DNA of 20,000 nucleotides from an uncultured virus (IMG/VR IMGVR_UViG_3300046689_000650) (IMGVR_UViG_3300046689_000650); one strand, 5' to 3'; shown: positions 803 through 18,597, numbered from the stretch's first letter. Program-made: numbers and translations. The notes: generated by a model from the letters alone, not told the origin.

Positions 803-1233
803 GCCGCTGCCCGCCTCGCCGCCACGCGCCCGTCTGACGCCCTCGCAGCCTCCCGGTCGTCCCGAGCGCCGTCCGCGGTCTCCCGGGCGCTCTCGCGGCC
901 TCCTGGCCCCACTGGCGGCCCATCGACGACCTCAACGGTCGGACAGGGGTACGGCGTGACGAGTCCTCGGCAACGCTGCCCGTCCCAGCCCGAGCACTCC
1001 CGGCACACCTCCACGCCGCCACGCAGCACCGGCGTGTGCAGGATGCGCAGCCGCTGCTTCAACCGCTGCAGTCGACGGGCCGCCGCCAGAGGCGGACCCA
1101 GCCGGCGCCGGAGCGGCTTGGCGGCCAGATGCTCGATGCCCTCCCGCAGGCGGGCCACCTCGGCCGGCTGCAGGCGTCCGTAGTCGGCTCGGTCGGCGAT
1201 GTTCAGCAACTGCTCAACGGTCGGCCCGCTCAC
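799..1233 (-). CDS. Hypothetical phage protein with a putative Zn-binding H-x-P...CxxC...YPCPT motif
   Basis: GTGA overlap with the upstream ORF; LHTP...CRECSG...YPCPTV pattern of the kind seen in small actinophage proteins. Confidence 0.7.
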   Translation of the reverse strand: MSGPTVEQLLNIADRADYGRLQPAEVARLREGIEHLAAKPLRRRLGPPLAAARRLQRLKQRLRILHTPVLRGGVEVCRECSGWDGQRCRGLVTPYPCPTVEVVDGPPVGPGGRESARETADGARDDREAARASDGRVAARRAAA

Positions 1234-1412
1234 GCCTGCCTCCCGTCGGCTCGCAGCGTCCTGCGTGCGGCCCGCTCGTCCGCGGCGGCCATCCGGCGCA
1301 GGGCCCGCTCGATGACTGCGGCCCGGACCTGTCCGGCGTAGCGGGTGCCGAGGATGCGTTCCGAGGTGCGGGTGAGGAGCTGGCGCGCCGTCGGACGACG
1401 CTGCGGGGTCAC
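1230..1412 (-). CDS. Small basic hypothetical protein (60 aa)
   Basis: GTGA overlaps at both ends; VTPQRRPTARQLL...GRQA. Confidence 0.65.
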   Translation of the reverse strand: MTPQRRPTARQLLTRTSERILGTRYAGQVRAAVIERALRRMAAADERAARRTLRADGRQA

Positions 1413-2356
1413 CGCTGGCCCTTCGATCGCCCGCTGTACCAGGGCAGCGCCAGACCGTCGTTCTCCGCCCGGGGAACCAGATGCAGGACACCGGCCGCGG
1501 CCTCGTCGTACTGCTTCAACGCTGCGCAAGCCGTGCACTCGCCAGCGCACTCATCGCTATGAAGACTGCGCATCTGCTCTATCGCGAACGAAGTTGCCAG
1601 GTACGAGTACCGGGACAGTGCCGCCATGAGGCCGCCTTCACGCGCGTGGTGGGACCGGCAGAGCACGCGATATCCGATGGACGAGTCGAGGCCAGAGAAA
1701 TACTTGGCTCCTGTGTCTGGGGCGACGCGAAGGCTTTCCTCCGGAAGGCCGGGGCGGAGCGCAACCTCCGGCCGACCGGAGCATGTTGCATCGGCTTCGG
1801 CGCAGGGCTGGCCTCGGAGCTGCTTCCTCGCCCTGGCGTGCGCAGCGTTGTATCCGATTTCCTCGCTGGCAGGCGGCCTACCGCCCATGTACGGCCTGCC
1901 CTGGTTTCCGCGGCCGCGAAGCGTGTAACCGCACTGCGGATCCCCACACGTCCGAAGGTCCCTTGCGTTCCGGTGGACCCGCGGCGCGAAGCACACGGGG
2001 CAGTCTCCAATCTCTGGAGTCCATGGAATCGGCACACCATCGAGTTCCTCGCGCGGGATCAGTTCGATGCTCAGATGCTCGGTTCCCTGGCCGGCTTCCC
2101 GGCCGCGCGAGGTGATCAGGTTCATGGGTCGGTCGGTCCACCGCATCAGCTGGGCAGCGTGCAGCATCGCGTCGGCGGAGACGGCCGGGTCGCTGGCGAA
2201 GTCGGGTACGTGCCGTTTCGGGATGACGAGGGTGTGGCCGTCGACGACGGGGTTGAGCGGGACGATCGCGATCACGTCCGACCACTCGTGGACGAAGGTT
2301 GCGGGTGCTCGTCCGGCGACGATCTCGCAGAACGGGCAGGGCTGTTCGGTAGTCAC
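1409..2356 (-). CDS. HIT-family protein interrupted in-frame by a Zn-finger/HNH-like endonuclease insert
   Basis: N-terminus CPFCEIVAG...PLNPVVDGHTLVIPKRHV is typical HIT; the expected HxHxH triad reads HLSIE; Cys/His-rich insert; ends with the original-type tail LHLVPRAENDGLALPW; GTG start overlaps the upstream stop. Confidence 0.85.
   Translation of the reverse strand: MTTEQPCPFCEIVAGRAPATFVHEWSDVIAIVPLNPVVDGHTLVIPKRHVPDFASDPAVSADAMLHAAQLMRWTDRPMNLITSRGREAGQGTEHLSIELIPREELDGVPIPWTPEIGDCPVCFAPRVHRNARDLRTCGDPQCGYTLRGRGNQGRPYMGGRPPASEEIGYNAAHARARKQLRGQPCAEADATCSGRPEVALRPGLPEESLRVAPDTGAKYFSGLDSSIGYRVLCRSHHAREGGLMAALSRYSYLATSFAIEQMRSLHSDECAGECTACAALKQYDEAAAGVLHLVPRAENDGLALPWYSGRSKGQR
1487..2092 (-). 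mobile_element. Putative homing-endonuclease-like insert (recoded HIT tail + CPVC...C-x4-C finger + HNH-like domain); boundaries approximate
   Basis: Many A/T-ending codons (e.g. ATT CCA TGG ACT CCA GAG ATT GGA) unlike the flanks; YNAAHAR...C...C...YRVLCRSHH resembles actinophage His-Me finger nucleases; bracketed by two copies of the HIT tail. Confidence 0.6.
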
Positions 2357-2622
2357 GCTGCCTCCTCGTGCTCGGCGTGCGCCCACGCGGGCGCTGTGTG
2401 CCTCTGTGGGGTCGGAGTGGACTCGGGGGTCAACTCGGGCTGTTCGTCCGGGAGAGACCCCGTCACGCCCCGTCTGACGGCAAGCCACGCCCACGCCCCG
2501 GTGAGCACCAGCGTGTAGACGACGACCGTGGCGACGAACGCGGCGGCCACAATCCAGGCGAGGATCGCGTCGGCCATGACCGACGCGGTGTCGATGACCT
2601 CGACGATCAACAGCGCCGTCAC
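2353..2622 (-). CDS. Small membrane protein
   Basis: Long hydrophobic segment AILAWIVAAAFVATVVVYTLVLTGAWAWLAV; GTGA overlaps at both ends. Confidence 0.75.
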   Translation of the reverse strand: MTALLIVEVIDTASVMADAILAWIVAAAFVATVVVYTLVLTGAWAWLAVRRGVTGSLPDEQPELTPESTPTPQRHTAPAWAHAEHEEAA

Positions 2623-2834
2623 GGGGTCGGCTCCTCGGCTACCGGGGTGATCGTGAGTCGCACCCAACCCAGCCGCTGCCGGTGCGACCGCTCCAGCAGC
2701 TCCCGCGCGAGGGATTCGGCGCGGTCCTTCGCGGGCGGCAGGTCGGGTTCATCTCGGATGATCTTGCTGTAGTCGCCGCGCTTGAGGTGGTAGTTGCGGT
2801 TGCTGCTGTAGGCGGTGACCTTGTAGTCGGCCAT
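2619..2834 (-). CDS. Hypothetical protein (71 aa)
   Basis: ATG 3 nt after the upstream stop; GC-ending codons; overlaps the downstream start. Confidence 0.75.
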   Translation of the reverse strand: MADYKVTAYSSNRNYHLKRGDYSKIIRDEPDLPPAKDRAESLARELLERSHRQRLGWVRLTITPVAEEPTP

Positions 2835-2837
2835 GGG

Positions 2838-3675
2838 TCAGGCCTTCCCGTCGGGCTGGGACACGGCGGCGGGCTGCTCGGCGTCGACGGTGTAGGTCGT
2901 CGTCTCGCGGATGAGGCGCCACGCGTGCCGTCCGCCGTCACGCTCGACGGTCTCGGCGAAGTCGGAGCGCGCCTCGGCGAGTTCGTATTGCACGCCATGC
3001 CAGGTGATCCAGTGGTCGCCGCGCCTCTGGGTCTCGGCGCGCCACTCGACGGACGGCGGGTAGGGGGCGTCGTCCTGCTGTGTCTCGACGGCCACACCAC
3101 CCGGACCGGACGCGGGCTGCTCGGCCCACTGGCCGTTGCGGTACGTGAGTCCGCAGCAGGGGCAGGGATCGGTGACGTCGCAGCGGACGCACTCGGCGTG
3201 ACCGGGGCAGCCAGGGTCGGACGCGGCGTCGGCCATGGCGCGCAGACCCACGGCGACGTCGTGTACGCCGCTCCAGTAACGGGGGTCGGCTTCCTTGCCT
3301 GTGGACTTGTCGATGATGGCGTCGTAGGCGTCGGCGGCTTCCCGCAGGATCGCGGCCCGGTCAGCGGTCTCGGGCAGCACAGCGGCGGCCAGCGCTTTCG
3401 CCCGGACGTCGAGCGCCTCAGCACGATCACGCATCTCCACCCAGTCCCATGCGGAGACGGTCCACGTCGCGGCACGACGACTCCAACTCGGTGATGCGGG
3501 TGCGCAACTCGGCTTGCTCGACGTCGGCGACAGCGATGGCCGCGTCGGCGCGCCTGAGGTAGTCGGGCTCGTCGTTCTCGTAGGCGGTCGGCCAGGTGTC
3601 GCCGTCACGGCGCGCCATCGCTGCGGCGTACCGAGTGCGGCGCTCGGCCTGGTCGGCGGGTGGGGTCTCGGTCAT
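2838..3675 (-). pseudogene. Hypothetical phage protein apparently split by a +1 frameshift near 3446-3448, or two coupled ORFs (3427..3675 and 2838..3440)
   Basis: Removing one G from ATGGGACTGG joins ...DVDRLRM to DWVEMRDRAEALD... as a continuous coiled-coil-like reading; the downstream part has DRAAILREAADA and a CPGHAECVRC...CPCC motif. Confidence 0.55.
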
Positions 3676-4221: not shown

Positions 4222-4512
4222 TCACGCGGCCTGGCCGTGCTGGCGGCCGACTGTGGGCAGTGCCACGACGGCGGCCTGCTCGCACTGCGGGCAGGTGCAG
4301 CGCCCGTGCGTCGGGGTGGGGCCGGTGGCGGTGGTGCCGATGGGCCAGCCGCCCCTGTGGGCGATCTCGTAGGCCGGCGGGGCGACCGCGGCCAGGGCCG
4401 GCTTCGGTGTGGGGGCGGGCTTGGCGGCCTGGCTGGTGAGGTACTGGAAGTACTCGCGGAGGCTGCCGTCGGTTCGCATTGCGGCGATGTCTTCGATCGT
4501 GGGTTCGTTCAT
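4222..4512 (-). CDS. Hypothetical protein with a C-terminal HxxCxCxxC motif
   Basis: ATGA overlap with the helicase stop; MNEPTIEDIAAMR...HGRCTCPQC. Confidence 0.75.
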   Translation of the reverse strand: MNEPTIEDIAAMRTDGSLREYFQYLTSQAAKPAPTPKPALAAVAPPAYEIAHRGGWPIGTTATGPTPTHGRCTCPQCEQAAVVALPTVGRQHGQAA

Positions 4513-5891
4513 GACTGCGCCATGTCGACAAAGCGGCTGTAGTGGCCCTGGAACGCAGTGGTGATCGTCGCGGTTGGGCCGCCGCGATGCTTGCCGACGA
4601 TCAAGTCGGCTTCGCCGGCCCGAGGGTGCTCCCGCTCGTAGGCGTCTTCGCGGTGCAGCAGGATGACGATGTCGGCGTCCTGCTCGATGGCGCCGGACTC
4701 CCGGAGGTCGGAGACCATCGGCCGCTTCTCGGTGCGCTGTTCGGGGCCGCGGTTGAGCTGGCAGAGGACGATGACGGCGATCCCGAAGTCCTTGGCGATC
4801 AGCTTCAGATTGCGGGAGATCTCGGCGACGGCCTGCTGCCGGTTCTCGGCGCGAGGCGCCTGCATCAGTTGCAGGTAGTCGACGATGACGAGCCGGAGCC
4901 CCTTGGTGCGGACCAGGTTGCGGATGCGGGCCCGCAGCGTCGGCAGAGACAACAGGGCGCCGTCGTTGATCCACAGGGGGGCGGCGGCGATATCTGGGGC
5001 CCGGCGTGCGGCGCGGAGCATGTCCTCGTCGGTGGCCATGCCCTGCTTCAGGTGGTGAAGGGCGATGCGGGCTTCAGCGGAGAGGGTTCGGTCGGAGAGT
5101 TCGTCTTTGCCCATCTCCAGCGACTCGAACAGGGTGGGGATGGCGTTGCGGATGGCGGCGGCGCGGGCGAAGTCGAGGGCGACGGTGGACTTGCCCATGG
5201 CGGGCCGTGCGCCGATGACGACGAGTTGGCCGGGTGCCCAGCCGCCGGCGAGGAGGCTGTCGAGGTCGATGAAGCCGGTGGGGATGCGGTCTTCGATGCT
5301 GGGTGGGGTGGTGGCCCGGTCGATGCTGCCGCCGAGCAGTTCCCCGATGAGCGCCAGGTTCTCCTCGTCGACCGGCCGGACGGCGCCGTCGAGGTCGGCC
5401 TGGATGGAGGCGACGTCGGCGTCTTCGTCGAAGGCCGGCGAGCTGCCTTTGAGGATTGCGTCGTAGCCGAGGGCGACAATGCGGGCGGCGACGGCCTTCT
5501 TGGCGACGCGGGTCGCGTACCAACTGGCGTTGCCGTAGTGCGCTTCGTTGCACAGTTCCATGAGCTGGTCGGCGGGAGGCACGCGGGTGGGCATGCTGCC
5601 GTCGGCGTGCCAGGTCTCGAGCTGCCGGTGGACGGCGAGGTGCTTGAGTTCGCCGTCCCGGAAGGCGGTTCGGAGTTCTTCGACGGCCCACCAGGTCCAG
5701 CGGAGCCAGTCGGTGGTGATGTCGGCGGGGTCGAAGCCTTCGGCGCCGAGGTCGTCGATGACGGCGGGCTGCATGATCGCGGTGGCGACGAGGATGCGTT
5801 CGGCTTCGAGGTCGCAGGGCCGGGAGGGCGGACGCGGGCCGGCATCGGCCACGGCCTCTTCGGCGATCCACAGGTCGGCTTCGGTGGTCAC
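4509..5891 (-). CDS. dnaB: Replicative DNA helicase, DnaB family
   Basis: IPTGFIDLD, Walker A GARPAMGKS, SLEM, VIVDYLQLM, QLNR, SDLRESGAIEQDAD, KHRGG; GTG 5891 overlaps the methyltransferase stop. Confidence 0.97.
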   Translation of the reverse strand: MTTEADLWIAEEAVADAGPRPPSRPCDLEAERILVATAIMQPAVIDDLGAEGFDPADITTDWLRWTWWAVEELRTAFRDGELKHLAVHRQLETWHADGSMPTRVPPADQLMELCNEAHYGNASWYATRVAKKAVAARIVALGYDAILKGSSPAFDEDADVASIQADLDGAVRPVDEENLALIGELLGGSIDRATTPPSIEDRIPTGFIDLDSLLAGGWAPGQLVVIGARPAMGKSTVALDFARAAAIRNAIPTLFESLEMGKDELSDRTLSAEARIALHHLKQGMATDEDMLRAARRAPDIAAAPLWINDGALLSLPTLRARIRNLVRTKGLRLVIVDYLQLMQAPRAENRQQAVAEISRNLKLIAKDFGIAVIVLCQLNRGPEQRTEKRPMVSDLRESGAIEQDADIVILLHREDAYEREHPRAGEADLIVGKHRGGPTATITTAFQGHYSRFVDMAQS

Positions 5892-6712
5892 GCGCTGAAC
5901 TCCTGGTTGAAGAGGTCGAATCGGTCGCCGAGCCTGGTGTTGGCCCAGATCACTTCCGTGCGGTCCTTGGTCGTCTTGGCGTTGCCGGTCATGGACGCCT
6001 TCTCGTAGCGGTGCCAGCCGGCGTACAGGTCGCCGTACAGCGGCGAGTGGTAGCCGGAAAGGACGACGGTGGCGCGGCAGTCGGCGAGCGCGGCCGCGAG
6101 CGCCCGGTGCTCGGCTTCGGTCTTCATCTCGACGCGGTAGTTGTTGCCCCACCCGCGGGTCGTGCCGAGGTACGGCGGGTCGACGTACAGCAGGCACTTG
6201 GGCTGCTTGCCGTACTTGGCGATCAGGTCAAGGGCAGGCATGTTCTCGAGCGACACGGCGTGAAGGCGTTCTGCCGCGGAGGCGAGGCGCAGCGCATAAG
6301 CCTCGAGGTAGCCCGGCATCGACGTGACCGACCCAGCAGGGTCGATGTAGTAGCGCCAGCCCGTGTTGCGCAGCGTGCCGGAGCGGCCCTGCGCGAGCCG
6401 GGACCAAATCCGGCGGGCCAGCTCAAGCTCGTCCGTCGTCGGGTCCCACGTCGCAGCGAGCTCGGCGCGGCCGTGCGGGGTGAGCATGCAGATGCGCAGC
6501 AACTCATCCGGCCGCTCGCGCAGCACTCGCCAGAACGTCATCAACTCGCCATCGAGGTCGTTGACGGTCTCCATCCGCGAGGGCCGTTTCGCGAGGAGCA
6601 CCGACATACCGCCGGCGTAGGGCTCGACATAGTGGTCGTGGTCGGGCAGGAGGTCGACAATCCAGCCAGCAATGCTCTGCTTGGAGCCGAAGTAGGGAAC
6701 GGGGCTCTTCAT
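5888..6712 (-). CDS. DNA adenine methyltransferase, Dam-like
   Basis: PYFGSK, YVEPYAGGMSV (SAM binding), VNDLD, catalytic YVDPPY, C-terminal RTEVIWAN. Confidence 0.95.
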   Translation of the reverse strand: MKSPVPYFGSKQSIAGWIVDLLPDHDHYVEPYAGGMSVLLAKRPSRMETVNDLDGELMTFWRVLRERPDELLRICMLTPHGRAELAATWDPTTDELELARRIWSRLAQGRSGTLRNTGWRYYIDPAGSVTSMPGYLEAYALRLASAAERLHAVSLENMPALDLIAKYGKQPKCLLYVDPPYLGTTRGWGNNYRVEMKTEAEHRALAAALADCRATVVLSGYHSPLYGDLYAGWHRYEKASMTGNAKTTKDRTEVIWANTRLGDRFDLFNQEFSA

Positions 6713-7422
6713 GCGGCTTCACCCCGACGGCGGTCCGGGCCCTTGAACACGACGCGCTGGCACATTTCGATGAGCCGGCTGGTGACGCGGTCGCCGAGGC
6801 GGTCGCTGATCTCCTTCGGCACCAGGTTGGAGGTGATCAGCGTCGGCAGGTGGTTCTCGTAGCGCCAGTTGATGAGCCGGAAGTTGATCTCTTCGGTGAA
6901 CTCGGTGGGCTTCCGCTCGGCGCCGAGGTCGTCGACGAGGAGCACCGAGGCGTTGCGGTAGTGGCGGAACTCGGCTTCGGAGTCGATGCCGTGGCGGGGT
7001 CGGAGCGCGGCGTACATGTCGGCCGCGGTGGTGACGACCCACGTGGCGGCGACGCCGGTGATCGCTAGTTCGCGGATCGCGCCGTAGGCCTGGTGGGTCT
7101 TGCCGGTGCCGGTGGGGCCAAGCAGCAGCAGGGAGCGTCCGCGGGTGATGGAGCCGACGGGTGCGCCGCGCTCGGCCTGAGTCTCGCGCGCCTCGGCGAT
7201 GAGCTCCTGGAGCCAGGTCTGAATCTCGGGGCTGTCGGCGATGGCGGCCCGGTAGTGGAACGGAATGATCTTGGCGGCGGCGACGATGGAGTAGCGGGCG
7301 ACGTTGGCGACGCTGTACGGGTCGGCGTCACCGGAGTTGAGCCAGTCGAGGTCGACGCCGCGGACGGCGAGCAGCTGCTCGAGGTGGTAGCGCTTCGGGT
7401 TGATCGGCGGGATCCACTGCAT
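6709..7422 (-). CDS. DnaC/IstB-like AAA+ ATPase (helicase loader)
   Basis: Walker A GPTGTGKT, Walker B LLVDDLG, TLITSN, RVTSRL, GPDRR; lies between the initiator and DnaB. Confidence 0.93.
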   Translation of the reverse strand: MQWIPPINPKRYHLEQLLAVRGVDLDWLNSGDADPYSVANVARYSIVAAAKIIPFHYRAAIADSPEIQTWLQELIAEARETQAERGAPVGSITRGRSLLLLGPTGTGKTHQAYGAIRELAITGVAATWVVTTAADMYAALRPRHGIDSEAEFRHYRNASVLLVDDLGAERKPTEFTEEINFRLINWRYENHLPTLITSNLVPKEISDRLGDRVTSRLIEMCQRVVFKGPDRRRGEAA

Positions 7423-7424
7423 GG

Positions 7425-8324
7425 TCAGTTCCAGTCCTCGAGGTAGGCGGCGTCGTCTGCGGGATTGCGGTGAGGGCCGTCGGGCGCGGCCACGGAGTCG
7501 AGCGGGTCGTCGTAGCTGCCGTTGTTCAGCCAGGTCGCGGAGTACGGCGTGTAGCGGTCGGCCTTGCCGTCGAGGTGCTGGGCGTAGGCCTTGGCCGCTT
7601 TGACGATCAGGTCCGGGTCGGCGCCGCGATCGAGAGCTGCCATCCAGGCCGTCCTGGACTTCTCTCGCTGCATGGGCCTCGGGTAGAGGAGCCAGAAGTC
7701 GCCGAACGCCTTCAGGGCGTAGTCGCGTTCTTCGTCTCCGGCCGCCGATCGAGCCGAGTTGCGGGCGCCGTAAGAGTCTTTTGGTTCAGCTCTTGGTTCA
7801 GTCTTTTGGTTTGGGTGACGTGGGCGTCGCCCCTCCTGCGACGTGGGCGTCACCCCATCCGAGACGTCGGCGTCACCGGTGACGTCCACGTCACCCCTGA
7901 CGTCCACGTCACCCGTCAAACCGGACGACGCATCGTCTGAGCTGGACTTCTTCTTTCCGCCCCTTCGACGGGATGACGCCAGCGCCACCCGTGACGTCCG
8001 CGTCACCTCATGCGAGCCGGCGCGGCCTCCCGGAACGACCCACTCGAGGGCCAGGTCGTAGACCTCCGGGCGCTTCCCTTCGGGGAGGTGGGCTGCCTTC
8101 GACTGGTCGCCGAGGCGGATGAAGCCGAGCTCTCGGAGCTGCTTGAGGTCACGCTGAACGGAGCGCTCGGCCTTGCAGGCGTAGGCGGCCAGCCGGGCGA
8201 CCGACGGGTATGTCCCGCGGCCCTTCTTGTCGGCGTGGCGAGCCAACCCGGCGAGGGTGGCGACGAGCTGCGCGGGCATCGGCGGCGCGTCTTCGAGTGC
8301 CCAGTCCATGGCCTCAACGCTCAC
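7425..8324 (-). CDS. Phage replication initiator with N-terminal winged HTH
   Basis: MSVEAMDWAL...LARHADKKG..TYPSVARLA...SVQRDLKQLRELGFI; C-terminal FGDFWLLYPR...ATWLN; internal iterons; upstream of the DnaC-like gene. Confidence 0.88.
   Translation of the reverse strand: MSVEAMDWALEDAPPMPAQLVATLAGLARHADKKGRGTYPSVARLAAYACKAERSVQRDLKQLRELGFIRLGDQSKAAHLPEGKRPEVYDLALEWVVPGGRAGSHEVTRTSRVALASSRRRGGKKKSSSDDASSGLTGDVDVRGDVDVTGDADVSDGVTPTSQEGRRPRHPNQKTEPRAEPKDSYGARNSARSAAGDEERDYALKAFGDFWLLYPRPMQREKSRTAWMAALDRGADPDLIVKAAKAYAQHLDGKADRYTPYSATWLNNGSYDDPLDSVAAPDGPHRNPADDAAYLEDWN
7770..8008. repeat. Putative replication origin: seven 18-bp quasi-palindromic iterons plus a T-rich repeat tract
   Basis: Consensus GTGACG-N4-CGTCACCC at 7815, 7838, 7861, 7879, 7897, 7973 and 7991; adjacent tract gtcttttggttcagctcttggttcagtcttttggtt at ~7776-7811. 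Confidence 0.8.
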
Positions 8325-8430
8325 TTCGGTCTCTTCTCAAGGAGGGGTGTCTCTCTGGGTGTTCAGCTGTTTTGGGACAGCCCTCATGGGGGCGACGTGG
8401 CCTGTGGTGCTAGGGCTTCGCTCGCATCTG

Positions 8431-8482
8431 AATTGTACAACCCGACGGACATTACAAGCGAGCTCTTGTGTATCCTGGTCGC
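8431..8482. promoter_or_regulatory. Divergent promoter/operator region between the initiator and the antitoxin
   Basis: TTGTACAA palindrome at 8433-8440 (contains TACAAT on -); acaag-N6-cttgt inverted repeat at 8454-8469; TATCCT at 8471-8476, 6 nt before ATG 8483 (leaderless pattern). Confidence 0.6.
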
Positions 8483-8782
8483 ATGAGTGAGTCCGCGATC
8501 CGACAGTTGGGCGTGTCCGAGGCCCGCGCGAACATGACCGAGGTCATTGCCGAGGTACGTCTGCTCAACAAGCCCGTCGCGCTCACTCGCCGCGATAAAC
8601 CGCAGGCCATGGTCATCTCCATGGACCGCTGGAAGGCTGCCGTCCTTGACGCCGAGGTCCGCCCCATCCACGAGGACGTGATCCGCCGGCTCAAGCAGCT
8701 GCTTGAGGACCCGGAGTTCTCCGAGATGCTCGAGCGGAAAGACCACGACCTTCACTACGTGCTCGAGACCAACAGCCTCTGA
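8483..8782 (+). CDS. Phd/YefM-family antitoxin-like protein (orphan)
   Basis: LGVSEARANMTEVIAEV....PVALTRRDKPQAMVIS matches the Phd/YefM N-terminal pattern; no toxin gene follows. Confidence 0.85.
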   Translation: MSESAIRQLGVSEARANMTEVIAEVRLLNKPVALTRRDKPQAMVISMDRWKAAVLDAEVRPIHEDVIRRLKQLLEDPEFSEMLERKDHDLHYVLETNSL

Positions 8783-8810
8783 CGTCACGTCCCCTCCTCT
8801 GCGGTCTCCC

Positions 8811-8832
8811 AGCCCCGCCTTCCGGCGGGGCT
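8811..8832. terminator. Bidirectional terminator between the antitoxin and the C5 methyltransferase
   Basis: agccccgcc-ttcc-ggcggggct perfect 9-bp stem between convergent stops. Confidence 0.75.
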
Positions 8833-8846
8833 TCGTCGTGTGCGGG

Positions 8847-9806
8847 CTAGGCGGCTGCTGCGAGTTGGCGGTGCGGCCGGAGGATTCCGGCGGCTTCGAG
8901 GACGGCCGCGGCGAGCGGTACCGGGACTGCGTTGCCGACGGCGAGGTACTGCTGGCCGGCGCGCCCGTGGAATACGAGTCCGGGCCGGAAGCCCTGGAGC
9001 GCGGCGCATTCGGCGATGGTGGGCCGCAGGTGCGGGAGTTCCCGGTCGCGCCAGGCCGCGGTGCCGATGTGCCGCTTCATCGCCTGCCGTGTCCCGTTGC
9101 CGAACGGCTCGGCTCCCCCGGTGTAGGTGCCGCCGGAGGTGACGGTGGGTGCGGGGCGTTGGGTGTAGCCCCAGCCGATGACGTCGGCCATGGCGGTCTG
9201 GGCCGGCTGGCCGAGCCCGCCGTGGGTGGGTGCGGGGAGCTGGATGTCGGCGATGCGGGAGGCGATGAGGACGGCCCGCTTGCGGGTCTGGCCGAGCCCG
9301 TAGTCCGCGGCGTCGAGGACGCCGGTGGCGACGCTGTAGCCCCAGCGTTGGAGGATGCCGGCGTACTGCTCCCAGACGGGCAGGACGCTGGGTACCTGTT
9401 CCATGGCGATGCGCTGCGGCTGCAGGTCGTAGTGCCAGCGCATCGGTTCGGCGGTGAGGATGCTGCGCCAGTCCAGGCAGTTGGCGCCGATCGCGGCCCG
9501 GGTGTCTTTGCCGCGGGAGAGGTCTTCGATCGCCTGGTGGACGAGCGGGAGATCCTGCAGGCCCAGCTTCTTGCCGCTCTTCCCGAAGCCGGGGCACGGC
9601 GGGCTGTCGATCTTGTCGACGTCGTAGCCCTTGAACGGGGCGGTCGGGTAGCGGGTGACGTCGCAGCGGATCGTCGTGTGCCCGGCACCGATGCGGGTGC
9701 GGCAGGCCGCGGCGTCCAGCTCCAGGCCCACCTCGTCGTGCAGGCCGGTCTCGGACCAGCCGATGCCGGCGAAGCCGTGAACGGTCAGGTGCTGTCGGCG
9801 GATCAT
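8847..9806 (-). CDS. DNA cytosine-5 methyltransferase
   Basis: Motif I FAGIG, catalytic SPPCPGF, MEQVP (motif VI variant), QTRKRA (VIII), ECAALQGF (IX), VGNAVP (X). Confidence 0.93.
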   Translation of the reverse strand: MIRRQHLTVHGFAGIGWSETGLHDEVGLELDAAACRTRIGAGHTTIRCDVTRYPTAPFKGYDVDKIDSPPCPGFGKSGKKLGLQDLPLVHQAIEDLSRGKDTRAAIGANCLDWRSILTAEPMRWHYDLQPQRIAMEQVPSVLPVWEQYAGILQRWGYSVATGVLDAADYGLGQTRKRAVLIASRIADIQLPAPTHGGLGQPAQTAMADVIGWGYTQRPAPTVTSGGTYTGGAEPFGNGTRQAMKRHIGTAAWRDRELPHLRPTIAECAALQGFRPGLVFHGRAGQQYLAVGNAVPVPLAAAVLEAAGILRPHRQLAAAA

Positions 9807-10654
9807 GCGGCCACCGCCACGTCGTACTCGGGGTGGTCGCGGAAGGCGTGGTCGATGTAGCTCTTGTCGACGCCGAGGCGTTCGGCGGCGGCGGCCCGGT
9901 CGAGCCCGGCGGTGGTCATGACCCAGTGCGCGTCTTGCGCGATGAGCTCACGGCGGGTGACGCGGTACATCGGTTCGAAGTGGGGGTCGTCGATGGCGCC
10001 GGGGTGCTGGTCCCAGTACTTCGGCGGGGCCCACTTGTGCTGCTTGGCGTTGCGCAGGGCGCGCCCGACGCCGATGTCGCTGACGCCATAACGGCGGGGC
10101 TTGCTCCTGCGGAGTCGTTCGTAGGCTTCGATGGTGGCCTGGGCGGTGGCGCCGTAGACCTGCTGGGTGCGGGTGAGGACGCGCCGCACGTGGTCGGGCT
10201 GGATGCCGATGTGCGGGCCGAGTTCCTTCAGCGGCCATCCGATCGCGGACAGTGCCTGGATGCGGCGGCGGGTGCCGGTGGGGTCAACCCGGCCGGGCAG
10301 GACCGGCTCGACGGGGATGGCGAGGATCTTGGCCTGCACCTCGACCGTGGTCTGCCGGATCATTCCGCGGCCCTGCTTCACGGCTGGCTGCGTGTACAGG
10401 CGGACGGTGTTCCAGTCGATGCCGGTGCGATCCGATACCCGTTGAATGGTGAAGCCTGCGGCGTACAGCTTGAGCAGGTGCTCGCGAACTGGGGTGGCGT
10501 CGATGAACGGCTGCCACGTTCCGGCTGCGACGGCACGGGCGCGGTTGCGCTGCCAGGTGTTGAACCGCTCGACGCACTCGGGGAGCCGGCACTGGTAGTC
10601 GGTGTAGCAAGTCAGGTTGCGGTGGTGGGGGGCTTCGCGGACGGCGGTGGTCAC
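9803..10654 (-). CDS. Multi-HTH DNA-binding protein with an N-terminal Cys/His knuckle
   Basis: HRNLTCY...CRLPEC; HTH-like segments FTIQRVSDRTGI, WPLKELGPHIGI and AAAAERLGVDKSYI. Confidence 0.75.
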   Translation of the reverse strand: MTTAVREAPHHRNLTCYTDYQCRLPECVERFNTWQRNRARAVAAGTWQPFIDATPVREHLLKLYAAGFTIQRVSDRTGIDWNTVRLYTQPAVKQGRGMIRQTTVEVQAKILAIPVEPVLPGRVDPTGTRRRIQALSAIGWPLKELGPHIGIQPDHVRRVLTRTQQVYGATAQATIEAYERLRRSKPRRYGVSDIGVGRALRNAKQHKWAPPKYWDQHPGAIDDPHFEPMYRVTRRELIAQDAHWVMTTAGLDRAAAAERLGVDKSYIDHAFRDHPEYDVAVAA

Positions 10655-10884
10655 GGTGTCTCCCTTCGCGGGCTGGGCGTGTTCCAGATGGCGTTGCAGG
10701 TGTCGAGGTCGGCCTGACGGCGCTGCAGGCGTTCGGCTTCGGCCTGCCGTTCCCGCCGCCGTTCGATGCGCCGGCTGGCGGCGTTGAGTGCGAGCCAGAC
10801 GGCGATGGCGACGGCGGGTGTGAGTACGGCGGTGACTGGGTGGGCGGCGATGAGGTTGATGACCCAGTCGGCGATGGGGCTCAC
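10651..10884 (-). CDS. Small membrane protein
   Basis: GTGA overlaps at both ends; hydrophobic N-terminus followed by a charged helix. Confidence 0.7.
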   Translation of the reverse strand: MSPIADWVINLIAAHPVTAVLTPAVAIAVWLALNAASRRIERRRERQAEAERLQRRQADLDTCNAIWNTPSPRRETP

Positions 10885-11012
10885 GTCCGCCTCCCGCGCG
10901 CCCAGTCGGCGACGAGGGTCCCGGCCGCGACGAGTCCGCCGGCGACGGCTCCTGCGGCGATGAGGGCGAGGTACAGGCGGCCGAGGCTGCGGTCCTCCAG
11001 GCGGGCCATCAC
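10881..11012 (-). CDS. Very small membrane protein (~43 aa)
   Basis: GTGATG overlapping the upstream stop; LYLALIAAGAVAGGLVAAGTLVADW. Confidence 0.6.
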   Translation of the reverse strand: MMARLEDRSLGRLYLALIAAGAVAGGLVAAGTLVADWARGRRT

Positions 11013-11386
11013 GCGGCGCTCCGCTGCTGCTGGGTGCGGGCGGCTCGGCGCTGGGCGGCGATCTGCCGGCCCTTCGCGGTGAGCGTCCAAACCGCGATGG
11101 GATGCCCGTGCGTGGCGGCACTGGTGGAGGGCACGTATTGGCCGGTGTGGGCGATGATCCCCGCCGACCGCAGGCTGTTGATGGCGGCGCCGAGGAAGCC
11201 GTTGCCCAGCTCGGGCAGGACTTTCCGGATCTGATTGCAGCTGAAGGTCGGGTAGCGCTCGCCGAAGTGCAGGACGGCCTGCTCGACGAGGAACCGGTCC
11301 CATTCGGAATGCTTGGCGATGTCGTCGAGGAGGGCGTCCTTCTCCGTGGACGCGAGCCGCTCGGCAACAGACAGACGACGGGTCAT
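11009..11386 (-). CDS. Hypothetical protein, possible winged helix
   Basis: AAGGA RBS; FSCNQIRKVLP...GAAINSLRSAGII...VWTLTAKG. Confidence 0.75.
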   Translation of the reverse strand: MTRRLSVAERLASTEKDALLDDIAKHSEWDRFLVEQAVLHFGERYPTFSCNQIRKVLPELGNGFLGAAINSLRSAGIIAHTGQYVPSTSAATHGHPIAVWTLTAKGRQIAAQRRAARTQQQRSAA

Positions 11387-11406
11387 GTGATGTCCTTGGG
11401 TCGAGG

Positions 11407-11433
11407 GGCCGGCCCGATTCCCGCGGGCCGGCC
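11407..11433. terminator. Intergenic hairpin
   Basis: ggccggcccg-N7-cgggccggcc 10-bp stem just after the 11447 stop. Confidence 0.55.
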
Positions 11434-11446
11434 TCCGGTGTGCGGG

Positions 11447-12379
11447 CTACTTGCTGTCGACGAGCTCGGCGGGGTACACCCCGTCCTCGTCGGGTCCGGA
11501 GTTCTCCGACTTCTTGCGCTCGGAGATCTCCTTGAGGTCGGCGATCAACTGGTCGTTGAGGTGGCCGGCCGCGTTGGCCTGGCGGTATACGTCGCCGACG
11601 TCGTCAGGGGTGAGGGCGCCTTCGGCGAGGGCCAGGTAGTCCGGGCGGGGCGCCTCGATCGCGGCGACCGCCTGCCCACCGCCGGCGGGGTTGAGGGCAA
11701 CCGCGGTCGGGAGGGGTCCGGCGAGGGCCTGCCTCGGGGTGACCCCGCGCAGCTCGACCACGACGACGGGGAATTTCTTCGTCTCCCCCTCGCGGACGAC
11801 CTGTCGCGGTTCGATCCGCAGCGTCACCGGCACGAACCCGCGGCCGTCGGTCCCGGCGAGGACCATGTCGACCATGCCGCCCCACTCGGATGCGGCATAG
11901 AAGGAGTGCGTCTCGGCCCGCCACAGACCCATCCCGGACAGGTCGGGGAGCATCACATTCAGGCGGGACGTGGTGGAGCAGACGACGCCCTTCTTCTGCT
12001 GGTGCCAGTCCTCACCGAACCGGGCCGCGCAGAGGCATGCCTGCCGCGACAGGAGCTCGGTCTCGCCGTCGCATCGGCGCTGACATCCGCCCTTCGTCCA
12101 GAGCTCGTTGTACTGATTCAGCGGATCACCGGGCGTGATCAGAGCCTCGATCGAGGACGCCTTCGTGATGACCCGCCACTGCTGGATCGTCGAGTTGAGC
12201 GGCGCCCACTGCTCGGGCTTGCCGCCCCACAGTTCGGCCGCGGCCCGGACGTGCTCCTCGGAGTGGGAGGTGACGACCCAGTTCGCGGACCGCATGGGCC
12301 GGTTGCCCTGGGTGTAGCCGGTGCGGAGTCGGCCGTGCTCGGCGGCGCGGGCCTGGATGTTGCGGAGTCGGGAGCCCAC
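11447..12379 (-). CDS. Cys-rich phage protein resembling the phiC31 Gp3-like (recombination directionality factor-like) family
   Basis: GRLRTG, CQRRCDG, CLC, CSTTSRLNVMLP, GLWRAETHSFYAA, acidic tail; family assignment is from memory of the pattern; GTG 2 nt after the exonuclease stop. Confidence 0.65.
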   Translation of the reverse strand: MGSRLRNIQARAAEHGRLRTGYTQGNRPMRSANWVVTSHSEEHVRAAAELWGGKPEQWAPLNSTIQQWRVITKASSIEALITPGDPLNQYNELWTKGGCQRRCDGETELLSRQACLCAARFGEDWHQQKKGVVCSTTSRLNVMLPDLSGMGLWRAETHSFYAASEWGGMVDMVLAGTDGRGFVPVTLRIEPRQVVREGETKKFPVVVVELRGVTPRQALAGPLPTAVALNPAGGGQAVAAIEAPRPDYLALAEGALTPDDVGDVYRQANAAGHLNDQLIADLKEISERKKSENSGPDEDGVYPAELVDSK

Positions 12380-12381
12380 GG

Positions 12382-13224
12382 TCAGGCCACCTTTCGGAAG
12401 TTGCGCCACCGGGCCGGGACGGGCTGGTCCGGGGCGAGAAGGGCCGGGTAGGAGGACGGGGCGGCGTGGTGCCACAGGGCGTTGACGAGGGCGCCGCGGA
12501 AGGCTTTGTGGGCGTCGCGGCCGGCGGGCATCTCGACGAGGGCGTGGGACTTGGCTCGCAGGTTGAGGACGCCGGTCTTCTGGATCTTCGGCATCGGCTG
12601 CTCGGTGTCGTCGGGGAGCAGGACGGTCTCGCAGTAGCGGAGGGCCGCTAGCTGCTGGGTGTTCTCCGGGTAGACGGCTTTCGCGGAGCGGGTCGCGGAC
12701 GTCTTGAAGTCGATCAGCCAGAGTTCGAGCTTGCGGCCGGGCCCGGTGGGCAGCCAGATCATGAGGTCGGCGGTGCCGGCGTAGCCGAGGCGTCGGTGCA
12801 GGCAGGTGATCTCGGCGGCTTCGACGTGCTTGTCGATGTCGACGCCCCAGAAGGAGAGGAACGCTTCCAGCTGGGCGAGGTAGGGGGCGACCGTCGCCTC
12901 GACCGCGAACGGGGCGCCGAGGAGACGGAGTTCCGCGGCTCGGTGGATGAGCGTGCCGAGATCGGACGCTGTGTCCCGTGCGTCGACGTGGATCTGCTTG
13001 AGCTGCTTGACCAGCGCGGTCCGGTCCGTGATGGCCCGGCGGGCAACTTCCATGCGGTGGTCGAGGATCCACTCGATGGTGACCTTGACGGCCCACGGCA
13101 TCAACGCGTGCTTGTGGACGCTGGTGCCGAGAACGTTGGTGACGGAGACGAGGTCCGGGCCGCCAGCCGGGTCGGTGTAGTAGCGGCCGTTGTCGGTGTC
13201 GTGGGCGTAGCGGGGGTCGGTCAC
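12382..13224 (-). CDS. PD-(D/E)XK (RecB/Cas4-like) exonuclease
   Basis: SVTNVL, GTLIH, E...GYAGTADL...LIDFKT...QQLAAL; GTGA overlap with the upstream gene. Confidence 0.85.
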   Translation of the reverse strand: MTDPRYAHDTDNGRYYTDPAGGPDLVSVTNVLGTSVHKHALMPWAVKVTIEWILDHRMEVARRAITDRTALVKQLKQIHVDARDTASDLGTLIHRAAELRLLGAPFAVEATVAPYLAQLEAFLSFWGVDIDKHVEAAEITCLHRRLGYAGTADLMIWLPTGPGRKLELWLIDFKTSATRSAKAVYPENTQQLAALRYCETVLLPDDTEQPMPKIQKTGVLNLRAKSHALVEMPAGRDAHKAFRGALVNALWHHAAPSSYPALLAPDQPVPARWRNFRKVA

Positions 13225-13955
13225 TGTTGGCCGCCGTTGCTGAGCGCCTGGCCCGCCAGCTCGCCGAGCTGCTCGTCGGTGGCTGTGTAGAAGGCGTCGG
13301 CCTTGGTGATCGCGTCGTAGACGTCGCGGGCCCATCGGGCGTCGCCGAGTGCAGTGTGGGCAGCGGCCTTGGCCGGGGGCTCGATGCCCATGAGCCGGGA
13401 CAGCTCGTAGGACTTCCAGCCGTCTTCGAGGAGTCGGTCGGCCCGGTTGTAGAACTCGGCGTCGCAGTTCTGCTTGGTCAGGGTGTACGCCTGCCCGTAC
13501 AGGTGGCCGACGGCCAGGGTGGCGATGTCGACGGTGCGGTAGTGCCAGCGGGGAGTGACGCCCGCCTCATGGAAGATCTTCGACAGGAACCGGTCGTCGA
13601 AGGCGGGGTTGGATCCGACGAGCATGGCGCCGTCGAGGATGGCCATCAGGTCGTGCATGAGGTCTGCCTCGGTAAGGGGCGTGACCTCGTCCGGTGTGGT
13701 GGTGGAGATCTCGATGGCGAACTCCCCGTCGGGGACGGCGAATCGCTGCTCGTACTGGTTGATCTCCAGGGCCTTCGGGTCGGCCTGGGCGAGGCTGGTG
13801 CGGATCTGGAGGAGGTACTCCAGGTCGGTGACGCCGGGACGACGAAGGATGACGGCGATCTCCCATGCGTCGTGCTTCCGCGGGTCGAGGCCGGTGGTCT
13901 CGGTGTCGATGAAGGCGAGAGGCCGAGAGGCCTTCGCGGTGCTGTCGGTACTCAT
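13221..13955 (-). CDS. DEDDh 3'-5' exonuclease (DnaQ-like)
   Basis: ExoI FIDTETTG, ExoII NPAFDDRFL, ExoIII AHTALGDA; GGAG RBS before ATG 13955. Confidence 0.92.
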   Translation of the reverse strand: MSTDSTAKASRPLAFIDTETTGLDPRKHDAWEIAVILRRPGVTDLEYLLQIRTSLAQADPKALEINQYEQRFAVPDGEFAIEISTTTPDEVTPLTEADLMHDLMAILDGAMLVGSNPAFDDRFLSKIFHEAGVTPRWHYRTVDIATLAVGHLYGQAYTLTKQNCDAEFYNRADRLLEDGWKSYELSRLMGIEPPAKAAAHTALGDARWARDVYDAITKADAFYTATDEQLGELAGQALSNGGQQ

Positions 13956-13984
13956 GGTTCTCCGTTTCAAGGTGTGGGGCGCCG

Positions 13985-14026
13985 GGGCCGCCGCCGATTC
14001 CCTGGGGGTTGGGAGGGCGGCGGCCC
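13985..14026. terminator. Intergenic hairpin
   Basis: gggccgccgcc ... ggcggcggccc 11-bp stem with a long loop. Confidence 0.45.
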
Positions 14027-14085
14027 TCGGCTGGCAGGCGGAGCAAGGGGGGGAAGCTCGACACCTGCCGGTCTGTGGTTGTCGG

Positions 14086-14424
14086 TCAGGCGGCGATGAT
14101 CAGGCCGCTGGTGGTCTCCATCAGCCGGTCGTAGTAGCCGGTCAAGTCGAAGTCCGCGTCCGCGCGGAGCTCGTCGGCCGGCCGCGTCCAGTCGGCGAAG
14201 TCGGCAACCTGCCGGGCGGCGTTGACGGCGTCGTCGTGGCTGGCGAACGCGGCCATGGCGAGCCCGGAGTGGTGGCCGAGCCGCCACAGGTAGGCGTCGC
14301 CGTCGGGGTGGCGGAGCTCTTCCGGCTCCTCGTACACCCGCAGGCCGGGCACGGGCTCGATCGCCTGGACGAGGACGGGCGTTGCCGTCCGGGTGGCCCT
14401 CACCTCGTGGGTGGAAGCGTTCAC
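14086..14424 (-). CDS. Hypothetical protein, paralogue of 3782..4105
   Basis: AGGAG RBS before GTG; shared motifs EPVPGLRVYE, WxLxHHxG, ADWTR. Confidence 0.8.
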   Translation of the reverse strand: MNASTHEVRATRTATPVLVQAIEPVPGLRVYEEPEELRHPDGDAYLWRLGHHSGLAMAAFASHDDAVNAARQVADFADWTRPADELRADADFDLTGYYDRLMETTSGLIIAA

Positions 14425-14456
14425 GGGAATCTCCTGTGGGATGCTGATGTCGGACT

Positions 14457-14486
14457 CCCGCCGAATTCACCTCGGCGGGGGTTTTT
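14457..14486 (+). terminator. Terminator-like hairpin with its T-tract on the + (antisense) strand
   Basis: cccgccga-attcacc-tcggcggg followed by ggttttt. Confidence 0.6.
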
Positions 14487-14528
14487 CGTTCACCGGCCGC
14501 CCGTACCTGAAGGCCGGGCGGCTGGGAG

Positions 14529-15059
14529 TCAGGCGGCCGGCTCGGGCTCGTCCCTTACGCCCCACGAGCAGGGCAGCCGGCCGGGGTTGGTGGTGGCGAA
14601 CGGCGCCTGATGCAGCGGCATCACGCGCGTGACGATGGGGATCTCCTGCGTGCGGGCCACTGCCGTTTCGGCGAGCTTCCGCACGTCCAGGCGGCGTTCG
14701 GCGTCGGTGACCTGGTTTTCGAGGTCGCGGATCCACCGGTCGCGGGCCTCGACATCCCGCTCGGCGACGGCCAGTGCTCCCTGCTCATCGGCGAGTTCGG
14801 CGCGCAGCCGGCGGACGTCGTCTTCGAGGTCGGTGATGAGCTGGACCTGAATGACGAACGTGTCGTCGGCTGCGGCCTTCAGGTTGAGGAGGGCCACGTT
14901 GTCGGCGCGGAGTTCCGTGAGCTCGGCCATCGCCTGGTCCAGGGCTGCGGTCAGTGACGTCGACCTGTCTTCGGCCTGGGTCAGCTCGCGTTGCAGCTGG
15001 AGTCCGGTCTTGCCGCGGTGGCGGTTCCGGTAGCGGGCGGGGATCAGGTTCATGCTCAC
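14529..15059 (-). CDS. Coiled-coil hypothetical protein
   Basis: Heptad-like L/E/R/A pattern; GTGA overlap. Confidence 0.8.
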   Translation of the reverse strand: MSMNLIPARYRNRHRGKTGLQLQRELTQAEDRSTSLTAALDQAMAELTELRADNVALLNLKAAADDTFVIQVQLITDLEDDVRRLRAELADEQGALAVAERDVEARDRWIRDLENQVTDAERRLDVRKLAETAVARTQEIPIVTRVMPLHQAPFATTNPGRLPCSWGVRDEPEPAA

Positions 15060-15274
15060 GACGCGTTCTCCAGTCCGGTGCGGTCGATGTATCCGGCGGC
15101 GAGGCTGGCCTTGTAGCTGGCGGTGGTGCGGAGGGTGTGGTTGAGCTCGCGCTTAGCTGCCAGTTCCGTGGTCCGCTCGGCCACGACGTCGGTCAGGCCG
15201 CGGATGACGAGGCGGCGCAACGCGTTGGCGAAGCCCGCGATCGGCGACAGGCGGGTCGGGAGCGGGGCGGTCAC
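15056..15274 (-). CDS. Hypothetical protein (72 aa)
   Basis: GTGA overlaps at both ends; VTAPLPTRLSP...LENAS. Confidence 0.65.
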   Translation of the reverse strand: MTAPLPTRLSPIAGFANALRRLVIRGLTDVVAERTTELAAKRELNHTLRTTASYKASLAAGYIDRTGLENAS

Positions 15275-15549
15275 TGGGCCGTCTCCGGGAGCGGCACGTC
15301 GGCGACAGCCCGCCCCTGGTAGCTGGCGTGCTGGCACCGGCCCATGAAGCAGGGCTCGGCACGCCGCTTCCACTCGCCGCGGCCGACCAGCTCGTGCCGC
15401 CACCCCTCGGCCGCTTCCCGTCGCCGGTCGGCGATCCGGGGGGTGAACTCCTTGTGGGCGTCCTCGGCAAGCTGGCCGACGACCTCCTCGTGTACGGAGC
15501 CGTACACGCAGCCCGTCGGGGCGATGCGGATCCAGAAGCCGGCCATCAC
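15271..15549 (-). CDS. Hypothetical protein (~92 aa)
   Basis: GGAGG RBS and GTGATG overlapping the upstream stop; MAGFWIRIAPTGCVYGS... Confidence 0.7.
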   Translation of the reverse strand: MMAGFWIRIAPTGCVYGSVHEEVVGQLAEDAHKEFTPRIADRRREAAEGWRHELVGRGEWKRRAEPCFMGRCQHASYQGRAVADVPLPETAQ

Positions 15550-16043
15550 GCCACCCGCCTCTGCTGCCAGGCGGTGAGCTGGTTGGTGGCGGTCCGCCAG
15601 GTTTGCGCTCGGTTCCAGTCGGCGCCCGGGAACGCGCCCTGCATCAGGTCGGCGAGCCGGTTCGAACCGCCGCGCGGGAGGCGGAGCTTGGCGCCGTCGG
15701 CGGTGAAGCACTGAGCGAGAAAAGTCCGGTGACTCTCCCCCGTCGCATCAGTCCAGACCGGCGCCAGAAGCACGGTGACGGCGCCGGGCGCGATCAGGCT
15801 GATACGCCACGCCAGTTGCCGCTGATGCCTGCGCCTACGGCAGGCCGAAGCCTTCCGCGGGTGCAGCGGGTGCGCTTCACGGTCGGCGGTGCGGCGGGCC
15901 CGCTGCATCTCCAACAGCTCGCCGCGGACACCTTTCGACCAGGCGCCCATGTCGGGGCCGTAGACGGCGGCGAAGTCGGCGTCGAGACGGACGAGGGCGA
16001 GTTCGACGTCGTCGGCGTGGCGGGATTCCAGGGCGGTGCTCAT
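15546..16043 (-). CDS. Hypothetical protein (165 aa)
   Basis: ATGA overlap; FPGADWNRAQTW near the C-terminus. Confidence 0.75.
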   Translation of the reverse strand: MSTALESRHADDVELALVRLDADFAAVYGPDMGAWSKGVRGELLEMQRARRTADREAHPLHPRKASACRRRRHQRQLAWRISLIAPGAVTVLLAPVWTDATGESHRTFLAQCFTADGAKLRLPRGGSNRLADLMQGAFPGADWNRAQTWRTATNQLTAWQQRRVA

Positions 16044-18199: not shown

Positions 18200-18260
18200 T
18201 GGGTCCACTCCTGTTTCTCTCAGGGATCTACGGGTGGATCTCGCGGCTCTCGGGCCGCGG

Positions 18261-18301
18261 AGCCCCGGCTGCCGGCGAGCGAACCGGCGGTTGGGGCTTT
18301 T
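18261..18301 (+). terminator. Terminator-like hairpin after the AlpA-like gene, T-tract on the + strand
   Basis: agccccggctgccgg-N8-ccggcggttggggct then ttt. Confidence 0.55.
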
Positions 18302-18307
18302 GCCGCT

Positions 18308-18595: not shown

Positions 18596-18597
18596 GG

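Follow-up and report, generated by a model that had tools for sequence, protein, structure and literature searches.

A probable 3'-end-replacing endonuclease cassette fused in frame to a histidine triad gene of a temperate actinophage

Introduction

Endonuclease elements that bring a spare 3' end for the gene they enter are described from fungal mitochondria and from yeasts. Here, we analyse a 20,000-nucleotide stretch of DNA from an uncultured virus (IMG/VR IMGVR_UViG_3300046689_000650), hereafter the window, whose source is a rhizosphere metagenome. In the window, a gene of the histidine triad (HIT) family is interrupted at the codons of its triad by an insert that encodes a nuclease-like protein in the same reading frame. 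We estimate a probability of roughly 70% that the insert is a mobile endonuclease cassette of the 3'-end-replacing type, which entered the HIT gene of a temperate actinophage at the DNA coding for the histidine triad.

Three kinds of described elements are useful for comparison. Mobile open reading frame (mORF) gene hybrids of fungal mitochondria occur in atp6, atp9, cox2 and nad3 of Glomus and in atp6 of Allomyces macrogynus. In these hybrids the host gene has received, in phase, an endonuclease open reading frame (ORF) together with a foreign C-terminal part, and its own C-terminal part lies downstream; the latter resembles that of relatives, while the inserted part is diverged (PMC3630166). 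The WHO elements of Torulaspora and Lachancea yeasts home into FBA1. The mobile unit consists of a nuclease gene and, upstream of it, a 3' end of the target that confers resistance; with integration the target's 3' end is replaced, the old end is pushed downstream and serves as a homology arm, and the 5' and 3' parts of the target have discordant phylogenies (PMC7282813). The ShiLan domain is inserted in a DNA methylase of an actinophage, does not splice and hides an HNH gene (PMC11855218).

The HIT cassette resembles the first two systems in its design. A diverged copy of the HIT 3' end precedes the nuclease-like ORF, the displaced native end follows it, uninterrupted (empty) alleles exist, and the histories of the insert and of the host gene are discordant. 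However, the replacement is not expected to keep the host gene functional in the fused form, as the triad is lost in 9/9 fused alleles (the window and eight relatives). It is kept in two relatives, L071 and L037, in which the nuclease-like gene lies antisense to the HIT gene, and which fit the WHO design closely. The initial annotation of this locus had pointed to the intronless homing of T4-like phages; we find the closest analogues in the mORF hybrids and the WHO elements instead.

There are also clear differences. The mORF hybrids involve LAGLIDADG or GIY-YIG endonucleases and organelle genes, and the inserted C-terminus retains the sequence of the host protein (91-100% at the protein level; PMC3630166), whereas the HIT cassette is HNH-like, lies in an actinobacterial phage gene and carries a replacement tail without the catalytic histidines. 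WHO proteins are of an intein-like LAGLIDADG-zinc finger type, are encoded by separate genes and leave the target functional (PMC7282813); in contrast, the variant in the window is fused in frame to its target, and the active site of the target is lost. With ShiLan the cassette shares an actinophage gene as host, an insertion that is open in the host frame and neither intron nor intein, a link to HNH endonucleases and a sporadic distribution, but in ShiLan the HNH gene is in another frame and the available text of PMC11855218 describes no duplicate of the target 3' end. In the window the nuclease-like ORF is in the host frame and brings a replacement tail. A literature search at the level of titles and abstracts found neither an endonuclease cassette in a HIT gene nor a 3'-end-replacing cassette in a phage, and the design, known from fungal mitochondria and yeasts, is apparently not yet reported in phages.

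Results

The fused reading frame

A single ORF on the minus strand (1409-2356) starts with GTG at 2356, ends with TGA at 1409-1411 and encodes a fusion of HIT, insert and HIT tail of 315 amino acids, with zero internal stops. The native N-terminal part of the HIT protein, recognised by its identity to the empty allele L005, by Pfam and by Foldseek, comprises residues 1-88 (2356-2093) and ends in ...NLITSRGREA. It is followed by tail1, the replacement HIT 3' end borne by the cassette, at residues 89-112 (2092-2021, GQGTEHLSIELIPREELDGVPIPW), which is defined by alignments, codon usage and the structure model. The nuclease-like ORF of 178 codons follows (residues 113-290, 2020-1487), and contains 10 Cys and 5 His. 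The frame then runs into tail2, the displaced native 3' end of the HIT gene, which starts with LHLVPRAENDGLALPW at 1486 and comprises residues 291-315 and the stop (1486-1409, LHLVPRAENDGLALPWYSGRSKGQR); it is read through in frame and identified by its identity to L005 and by its codon usage. The entire cassette, i.e. tail1 and the nuclease-like ORF, has 202 codons or about 605 nucleotides (2092-1487) and stands in place of 23 nucleotides of the uninterrupted allele. These boundaries agree with the initial annotation, which had placed tail1 and the start of tail2 at the same positions and described a Cys/His-rich stretch of about 180 amino acids between them.

Uninterrupted alleles and junctions

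In a blastn search of phage records seven Streptomyces phages were matched. In three of these, JustBecause, Kela and Frankenweenie, the N-terminal part and tail2 of the window match adjoining pieces of an intact gene that is annotated as histidine triad protein. We also scanned one genome per species and obtained 66 loci, of which 64 are not antisense-cassette loci. An intact H-x-H-x-H-x-x-P-R motif, in an ORF that runs through the match, is present in 54 of the 64.

The closest empty allele is L005, from a Streptomyces sp. Its N-terminal part is identical to the window at 83/85 amino acids and 225/255 nucleotides, and its counterpart of tail2 at 15/16 amino acids and 38/48 nucleotides. At the DNA level, homology extends from window position 2348 to 2093 (256 nucleotides, 88%) and resumes from 1487 to 1421 (67 nucleotides, 79%). 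Since L005 has only 23 nucleotides between the two blocks, about 605 nucleotides (1487-2092) are extra in the window. The reverse event, a deletion between the two tails that turns a fused allele into an L005-like one, was considered and rejected, as it would leave an altered triad. The initial annotation had made its case depend on the existence of uninterrupted alleles with matching flanks, and both L005 and the Streptomyces phages align on the two sides of the insert.

The interrupted structure is not an artefact of assembly, because the same allele is present in contigs of three further sequencing runs. These contigs, from other studies, are identical to the insert, and those of runs X2 and X3 include the left junction. 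In run X1, the probable source run of the window, a contig of a diverged relative joins position 1487 to 2111. Scans of viral contigs and metagenome contigs returned only L071, L072 and L073, and a tblastn search of the insert against 50,697 phage records gave no match at E ≤ 0.01.

One apparent long match, L039, was discarded, since it consists of two separate intact HIT genes in tandem (L039:3956-5423, in a Streptomyces genome). The second of these lies inside a 387-residue ORF with a long C-terminal extension.

Homology and codon usage of the two tails

By direct count on the translation, IELIPREELDGVPIPW of tail1 and LHLVPRAENDGLALPW of tail2 share 8/16 identities, the same figure as in the initial annotation. 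The likeness is not due to chance, because both tails are homologous to the 3' end of HIT genes. The Pfam HIT model PF01230 matches residues 16-104 at model positions 3-97 of 98 (E 3.9e-9), and the match extends through tail1. At the DNA level the tails agree at 30/48 nucleotides, which is too diverged to be detected as a repeat, and the repeat scan did not list the pair. Scans for repeats, promoters and terminators found nothing relevant to the junctions.

Codon usage separates the cassette from its flanks. The GC content at third codon positions (GC3) is 0.875 in the N-terminal part, 0.67 in tail1, 0.74 in the insert and 0.84 in tail2, and ranges from 0.78 to 0.92 in seven neighbouring ORFs. 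The excess of A/T-ending codons noted earlier for the insert is thus found again, in tail1 as well as in the insert.

In tail1 the triad H-x-H-x-H reads H-L-S-I-E (full motif H-L-S-I-E-L-I), and tail2 retains only L-H-L-V-P-R. The proposal of the initial annotation is borne out on these points: the catalytic histidines are lost, and the gene is interrupted at the triad codons, with a diverged replacement 3' end upstream of the nuclease-like ORF and the native end downstream.

The HIT domain of the fusion

The model of the full-length protein has a mean predicted local distance difference test score (pLDDT) of 86, with block means of 86-98 over residues 11-100. Foldseek aligns it to solved HIT proteins with an E-value of 2e-8 over about 100-118 columns and a template modelling (TM) score of up to 0.83 on the target. 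In the model tail1 supplies the final strand of the HIT sheet (E97-101), with a mean pLDDT of 94 over residues 91-100, while residues 301-315 of tail2 are below 50. The sole match in PADLOC is a HIT-family model (residues 3-54). The fold of the HIT superfamily PF01230 is found in the model, but the catalytic motif His-x-His-x-His-x-x is absent. The middle histidine of the triad is the nucleophile in Hint and Fhit. As it is missing, hydrolysis via a nucleotidyl-histidine intermediate should be lost in the fusion, i.e. the HIT domain should be complete in fold but catalytically dead.

The nuclease-like protein

The insert is modelled with a mean pLDDT of 92.3. It starts with a zinc-ribbon-like segment, CPVC...TCGDPQC (residues 119-142, 2002-1931), whose C119, C122, C137 and C142 are invariant in 9/9 fused proteins; the motif is also present in the antisense relatives. 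An HNH-like core (residues 164-240, 1867-1637) and a helical C-terminal part (residues 241-290, 1636-1487, with H266, C270, C274 and C277) follow. In the core C185, C192, C233, H236 and H237 are invariant in 9/9 fused proteins and nearly invariant in the wider family. They form the pattern C185...C192...C233-x2-H236-H237, with putative Cys/His zinc ligands and a putative metal-binding His/Asn at the start of a helix, a trait of His-Me finger nucleases. The roles of these five residues would follow from the pattern C-x2-[C/H]-[N/H] of T4 endonuclease VII.

The sole link to a curated family is transitive. Two of the 13 relatives scanned, P0151 and P0137, match PHROG 8446, 'HNH endonuclease', and share the core with the insert. 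NUMOD3 motifs are found in 7 of 29 scanned wider relatives, which are small proteins. A tblastn search with P0137, which is of the NUMOD3 type, gave only 6 records, from Ralstonia and Xanthomonas phages, two of them annotated as homing endonuclease at the NUMOD3 part. In BFVD, names of HNH or homing endonucleases are carried by 16 of the 50 matches listed. The ESM Atlas provided leads only: clusters of viral hypothetical proteins (0.90-0.91), HNH clusters (0.89) and a NUMOD3 cluster (0.88). Remote homology and low structural scores weakly suggest that the insert belongs to the HNH / His-Me finger group.

Fused relatives and evidence for mobility

A phmmer search with the insert found 89 relatives. 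The architecture of the window recurs in seven full-length proteins and in P0106, at 48-65% identity, and P0010 is a partial sequence of this type. In 9/9 fused proteins the left junction lies after the A of REA. The middle histidine is absent from all nine, where it is replaced by S, A, L or G. All nine also keep the reading frame through tail2, in which DGLALPW is invariant.

The insert and the HIT gene that hosts it have different histories. In P0003, P0005, P0006, P0007 and P0008 the inserts are 83-92% identical and the HIT N-terminal parts 58-74%. Comparison of the window with P0003 gives the reversed pattern, with 82% in the N-terminal part and 61% in the insert. The counts of differences in the N-terminal part and the insert are 15:65 for P0001/P0003 and 32:14 for P0006/P0008 (Fisher p 2.8e-8). 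The N-terminal part of the window is nearest to empty alleles (98% to L005) and at most 82% identical to that of fused alleles. This discordance points to mobility of the insert. Within the core, the proportions of nonsynonymous (pN) and synonymous (pS) differences between the window and L072 are 0.23 and 0.72, rough values as synonymous sites are saturated, and the core appears to be under purifying selection.

P0007 is the only relative with a source name. It is labelled 'HIT family protein' though it lacks the nucleophile, an annotation trap. In P0108 (277 amino acids) two zinc ribbons and the core occur together with a HIT tail remnant in sense orientation (LHVVPRRKGDGLPLPW), but the ORF has no HIT N-terminal part; this protein may represent a third arrangement of the cassette.

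Antisense relatives

DNA context is available for four insert relatives, and in 4/4 the gene lies antisense beside a HIT gene or its remains. The antisense relatives in L071, L037 (with its near copy L073) and L022 are 43-47% identical to the insert (E 1e-35 to 1e-41). In the viral contig L071, the HIT gene has an intact HLHLHLVPR tail and a stop of its own; it is followed by the nuclease-like gene on the opposite strand and then by a second HIT tail remnant (ATQS...PRAESDGLALPWYSGRSSR). In L037 and L073 a HIT gene stands next to the antisense nuclease-like gene, and a tail remnant was not found. In L022 all that flanks the antisense gene is the initial ten codons of HIT and a remnant of the tail. 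L071 and L022 thus both have a displaced piece of HIT tail on the far side of the antisense gene.

In both L071 and L037 the HIT tail keeps the triad and has a GC3 of 0.61, compared with 0.96 and 0.92 in the respective N-terminal parts. The changes in the triad region are mostly at third codon positions; the tail is a spare copy that has been recoded synonymously. A tree of the core places the HIT-associated proteins together in one clade, with a Shimodaira-Hasegawa-like approximate likelihood ratio support (SH-aLRT) of 99. The clade has 20 rows: ten fused, three antisense, six of unknown context and one identical to L037.

Two details of these loci deserve mention. In L071 (4880-4945, minus strand) one nucleotide is lost in a G run (CGGGCC for CGGGGCC), about 10 nucleotides before the junction, and the frame of the N-terminal part stops after ...ITSRAGKPPSP; this is either a sequencing error or a real break. 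In L022 (3890-4550) the tail remnant is MSMLPRAEGDRLALPWGSGR and the main part of the HIT gene is missing; the cassette looks as if it were at a late stage of degradation.

A possible mechanism

These observations would be explained by a break near the triad codons of an empty HIT allele, repaired by copying an allele that bears the cassette. At this putative target, the DNA coding for the triad, conservation in the 54 empty alleles is 90-99% at first and second codon positions. The N-terminal part of HIT would serve as the left homology arm and the native 3' end, pushed downstream by the cassette, as the right arm. Because the cassette ORF has no stop of its own, the native end is read through in frame to the native stop. 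In the fused sense variant the replacement tail has lost the nucleophilic middle histidine and the third one, and the recoded copy would presumably make the allele immune to cleavage. The nuclease-like protein may be made as a C-terminal fusion to the dead HIT domain or from an internal start, for which the in-frame GTG of Val108, with GAGGAA 11 nucleotides upstream, is a candidate.

Repair by copying would account for the conserved left junction, for the discordant histories and for a native-like tail2 that is renewed with each transfer. The open frame through tail2 would result from a junction that is in frame by construction and a cassette ORF without a stop.

Weighing the evidence

Several observations weigh against a mobile endonuclease cassette. 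The column of the general-base histidine, which is expected at the end of the first strand and was assigned from the sequence pattern and the modelled strands and not by superposition, holds a histidine in 0/19 HIT-associated proteins and in 40/75 other relatives, and the window has Pro202 at this place. Foldseek gave no match in the PDB at E ≤ 0.001 (the best E-value is 1.7), none of the VIA scores reaches 5, and the best E-value in BFVD is 5.5e-3. No family of Pfam, NCBIfam or PADLOC covers the insert, and when the sequences of the PDB were searched with the core alignment (hmmsearch), 0 hits were obtained at E ≤ 10. In approximately unbiased (AU) tests on the 84 columns of the N-terminal part, a single clade of fused alleles was not rejected, either for all nine (p 0.29) or for the five with similar inserts (p 0.22). 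The DNA comparison of fused alleles comprises only the window and L072. The frame that is open through tail2 in all nine fused proteins and the invariant DGLALPW are not required of a functionless fragment; we read them as a sign of renewal at each transfer. Finally, the promoter scan of the region yielded no promoter-like site, and we therefore infer that the nuclease-like protein is made as a fusion.

The label 'HNH-like' of the initial annotation is a weak assignment. The invariant Cys/His ligands and the transitive link to PHROG 8446 speak for it, but the general-base histidine is missing and the insert itself has no match to an HNH family in Pfam, NCBIfam or PHROGs.

A second explanation shares the origin of the cassette but takes it to be inert now. 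The catalytic base would be lost, the HIT domain dead and the fusion a passenger, spread by ordinary recombination during co-infection or by a nuclease acting in trans. We regard this as unlikely. It would fit the missing general-base histidine, and trans-homing of a defunct endonuclease is reported for T4 mobE/I-TevIII (PMC2790892). The fused alleles also have longer end branches in the tree of the N-terminal part, with a median of 0.21 vs 0.084 (one-sided Mann-Whitney p 0.013), and in P0004, P0009 and P0106 (3/9 fused), changes affect 5 of the 23 columns whose conservation in empty alleles is 95% or more. Both features fit relaxed constraint after inactivation, and uneven sampling may contribute. 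However, the similar inserts in clearly diverged HIT alleles, noted above for five relatives, imply recent directed spread. The low pN relative to pS in the core and the invariance of C185, C192, C233, H236 and H237 also speak against an inert insert, and the histidine column is so variable in the wider family that it may not represent the essential base at all.

The same retention of frame at both junctions in 9/9 fused alleles, together with DGLALPW, could instead suggest a domesticated chimera, in which the triad-less HIT domain, the nuclease-like domain and the C-terminal tail jointly serve a new phage function, e.g. nucleotide-sensing DNA processing or interference with rival HIT proteins. 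In addition, 22-23 of the 23 conserved columns are kept in 6/9 fused alleles, and the N-terminal part and tail1 are modelled as a complete HIT fold. Yet the architecture is sporadic, as 0/54 triad-checked HIT loci of representative genomes are interrupted, and insert and host part do not share a history. Moreover, the end of tail2 is modelled with pLDDT below 50, the N-terminal part decays in the older fused alleles, and the antisense sister cassettes work as separate genes. Domestication therefore seems quite improbable to us. Splicing of the insert as an intron or intein, which would yield an intact HIT enzyme, is more improbable still, to the point of being negligible, although an in-frame insertion at a catalytic motif is typical of both. 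Inteins start with Cys or Ser and end with His-Asn followed by Cys, Ser or Thr. The insert starts with TPEIGD and ends with AAAGV followed by L, no Hint or intein family was found in Pfam, and no Rfam family matches window positions 1000-3000 at E ≤ 1, in agreement with the non-intron, non-intein nature proposed earlier. Removal of residues 113-290 or 89-290 does not restore H-x-H-x-H, because tail2 begins with LHLVPR. Neither introns nor inteins are marked by a duplicated tail, and a frame that is open throughout is not a trait of introns.

A mobile 3'-end-replacing cassette thus remains our preferred reading. If it is correct, it would bring the solution of a resistant spare 3' end, known from fungi and yeasts, into actinobacterial phages, and would indicate that a putative nuclease family has the strongly conserved DNA of the HIT triad as its target. 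The two orientations at one target, one of which keeps the active site of the host enzyme while the other destroys it, would offer a test of how much cost to the host is tolerable.

Homing elements are usually thought to persist by sparing the host gene, through splicing or intergenic placement. A possible further step, which we put forward tentatively and consider rather doubtful, is that the fused variant represents a distinct homing lifestyle. It would gain immunity by erasing the codons of the catalytic histidines, use the dead but fold-complete HIT domain as a carrier for expression and folding of the nuclease and spread at the cost of the target enzyme; the antisense cassettes, whose synonymous recoding of this site keeps the triad, would be the harmless form. 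If so, the two forms, fused and antisense, would allow homing with and without a cost to be compared in nature at a single target.

Neighbouring genes

The gene content of the window is that of an early and replication module of a temperate phage, with Bro-N/ANT, an exonuclease, a Gp3-like factor, two methylases, a DnaC-like loader and DnaB. The closest record, G001, is identical over window positions 4431-20000 and does not extend to the HIT gene. At 4509-6712 an ORF of 562 amino acids for DnaB overlaps the ORF of a D12-class N6 adenine methylase (5888-6712) by about 310 nucleotides. The first ~100 residues of the DnaB ORF are Arg/Pro-rich, and the real start is probably farther downstream.

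Just upstream of the HIT gene, in the region 2480-3140, contigs of X1 and X2 cover positions 2480-2600, 2762-2949 and 3044-3137 at a depth above 100. In these contigs 2603 is joined to 2826, and 2887 to 3074, with the omission of about 190-220 nucleotides, and therefore abundant relatives without these segments are present. On the other side, at 1409-1413, the HIT stop shares bases with a GTG (GTGA), the start of a small ORF that lies downstream (VTPQRRPTARQLL..., to 1230). In L039, too, the first HIT gene is followed by a small protein similar to this one, which suggests translational coupling between the two genes.

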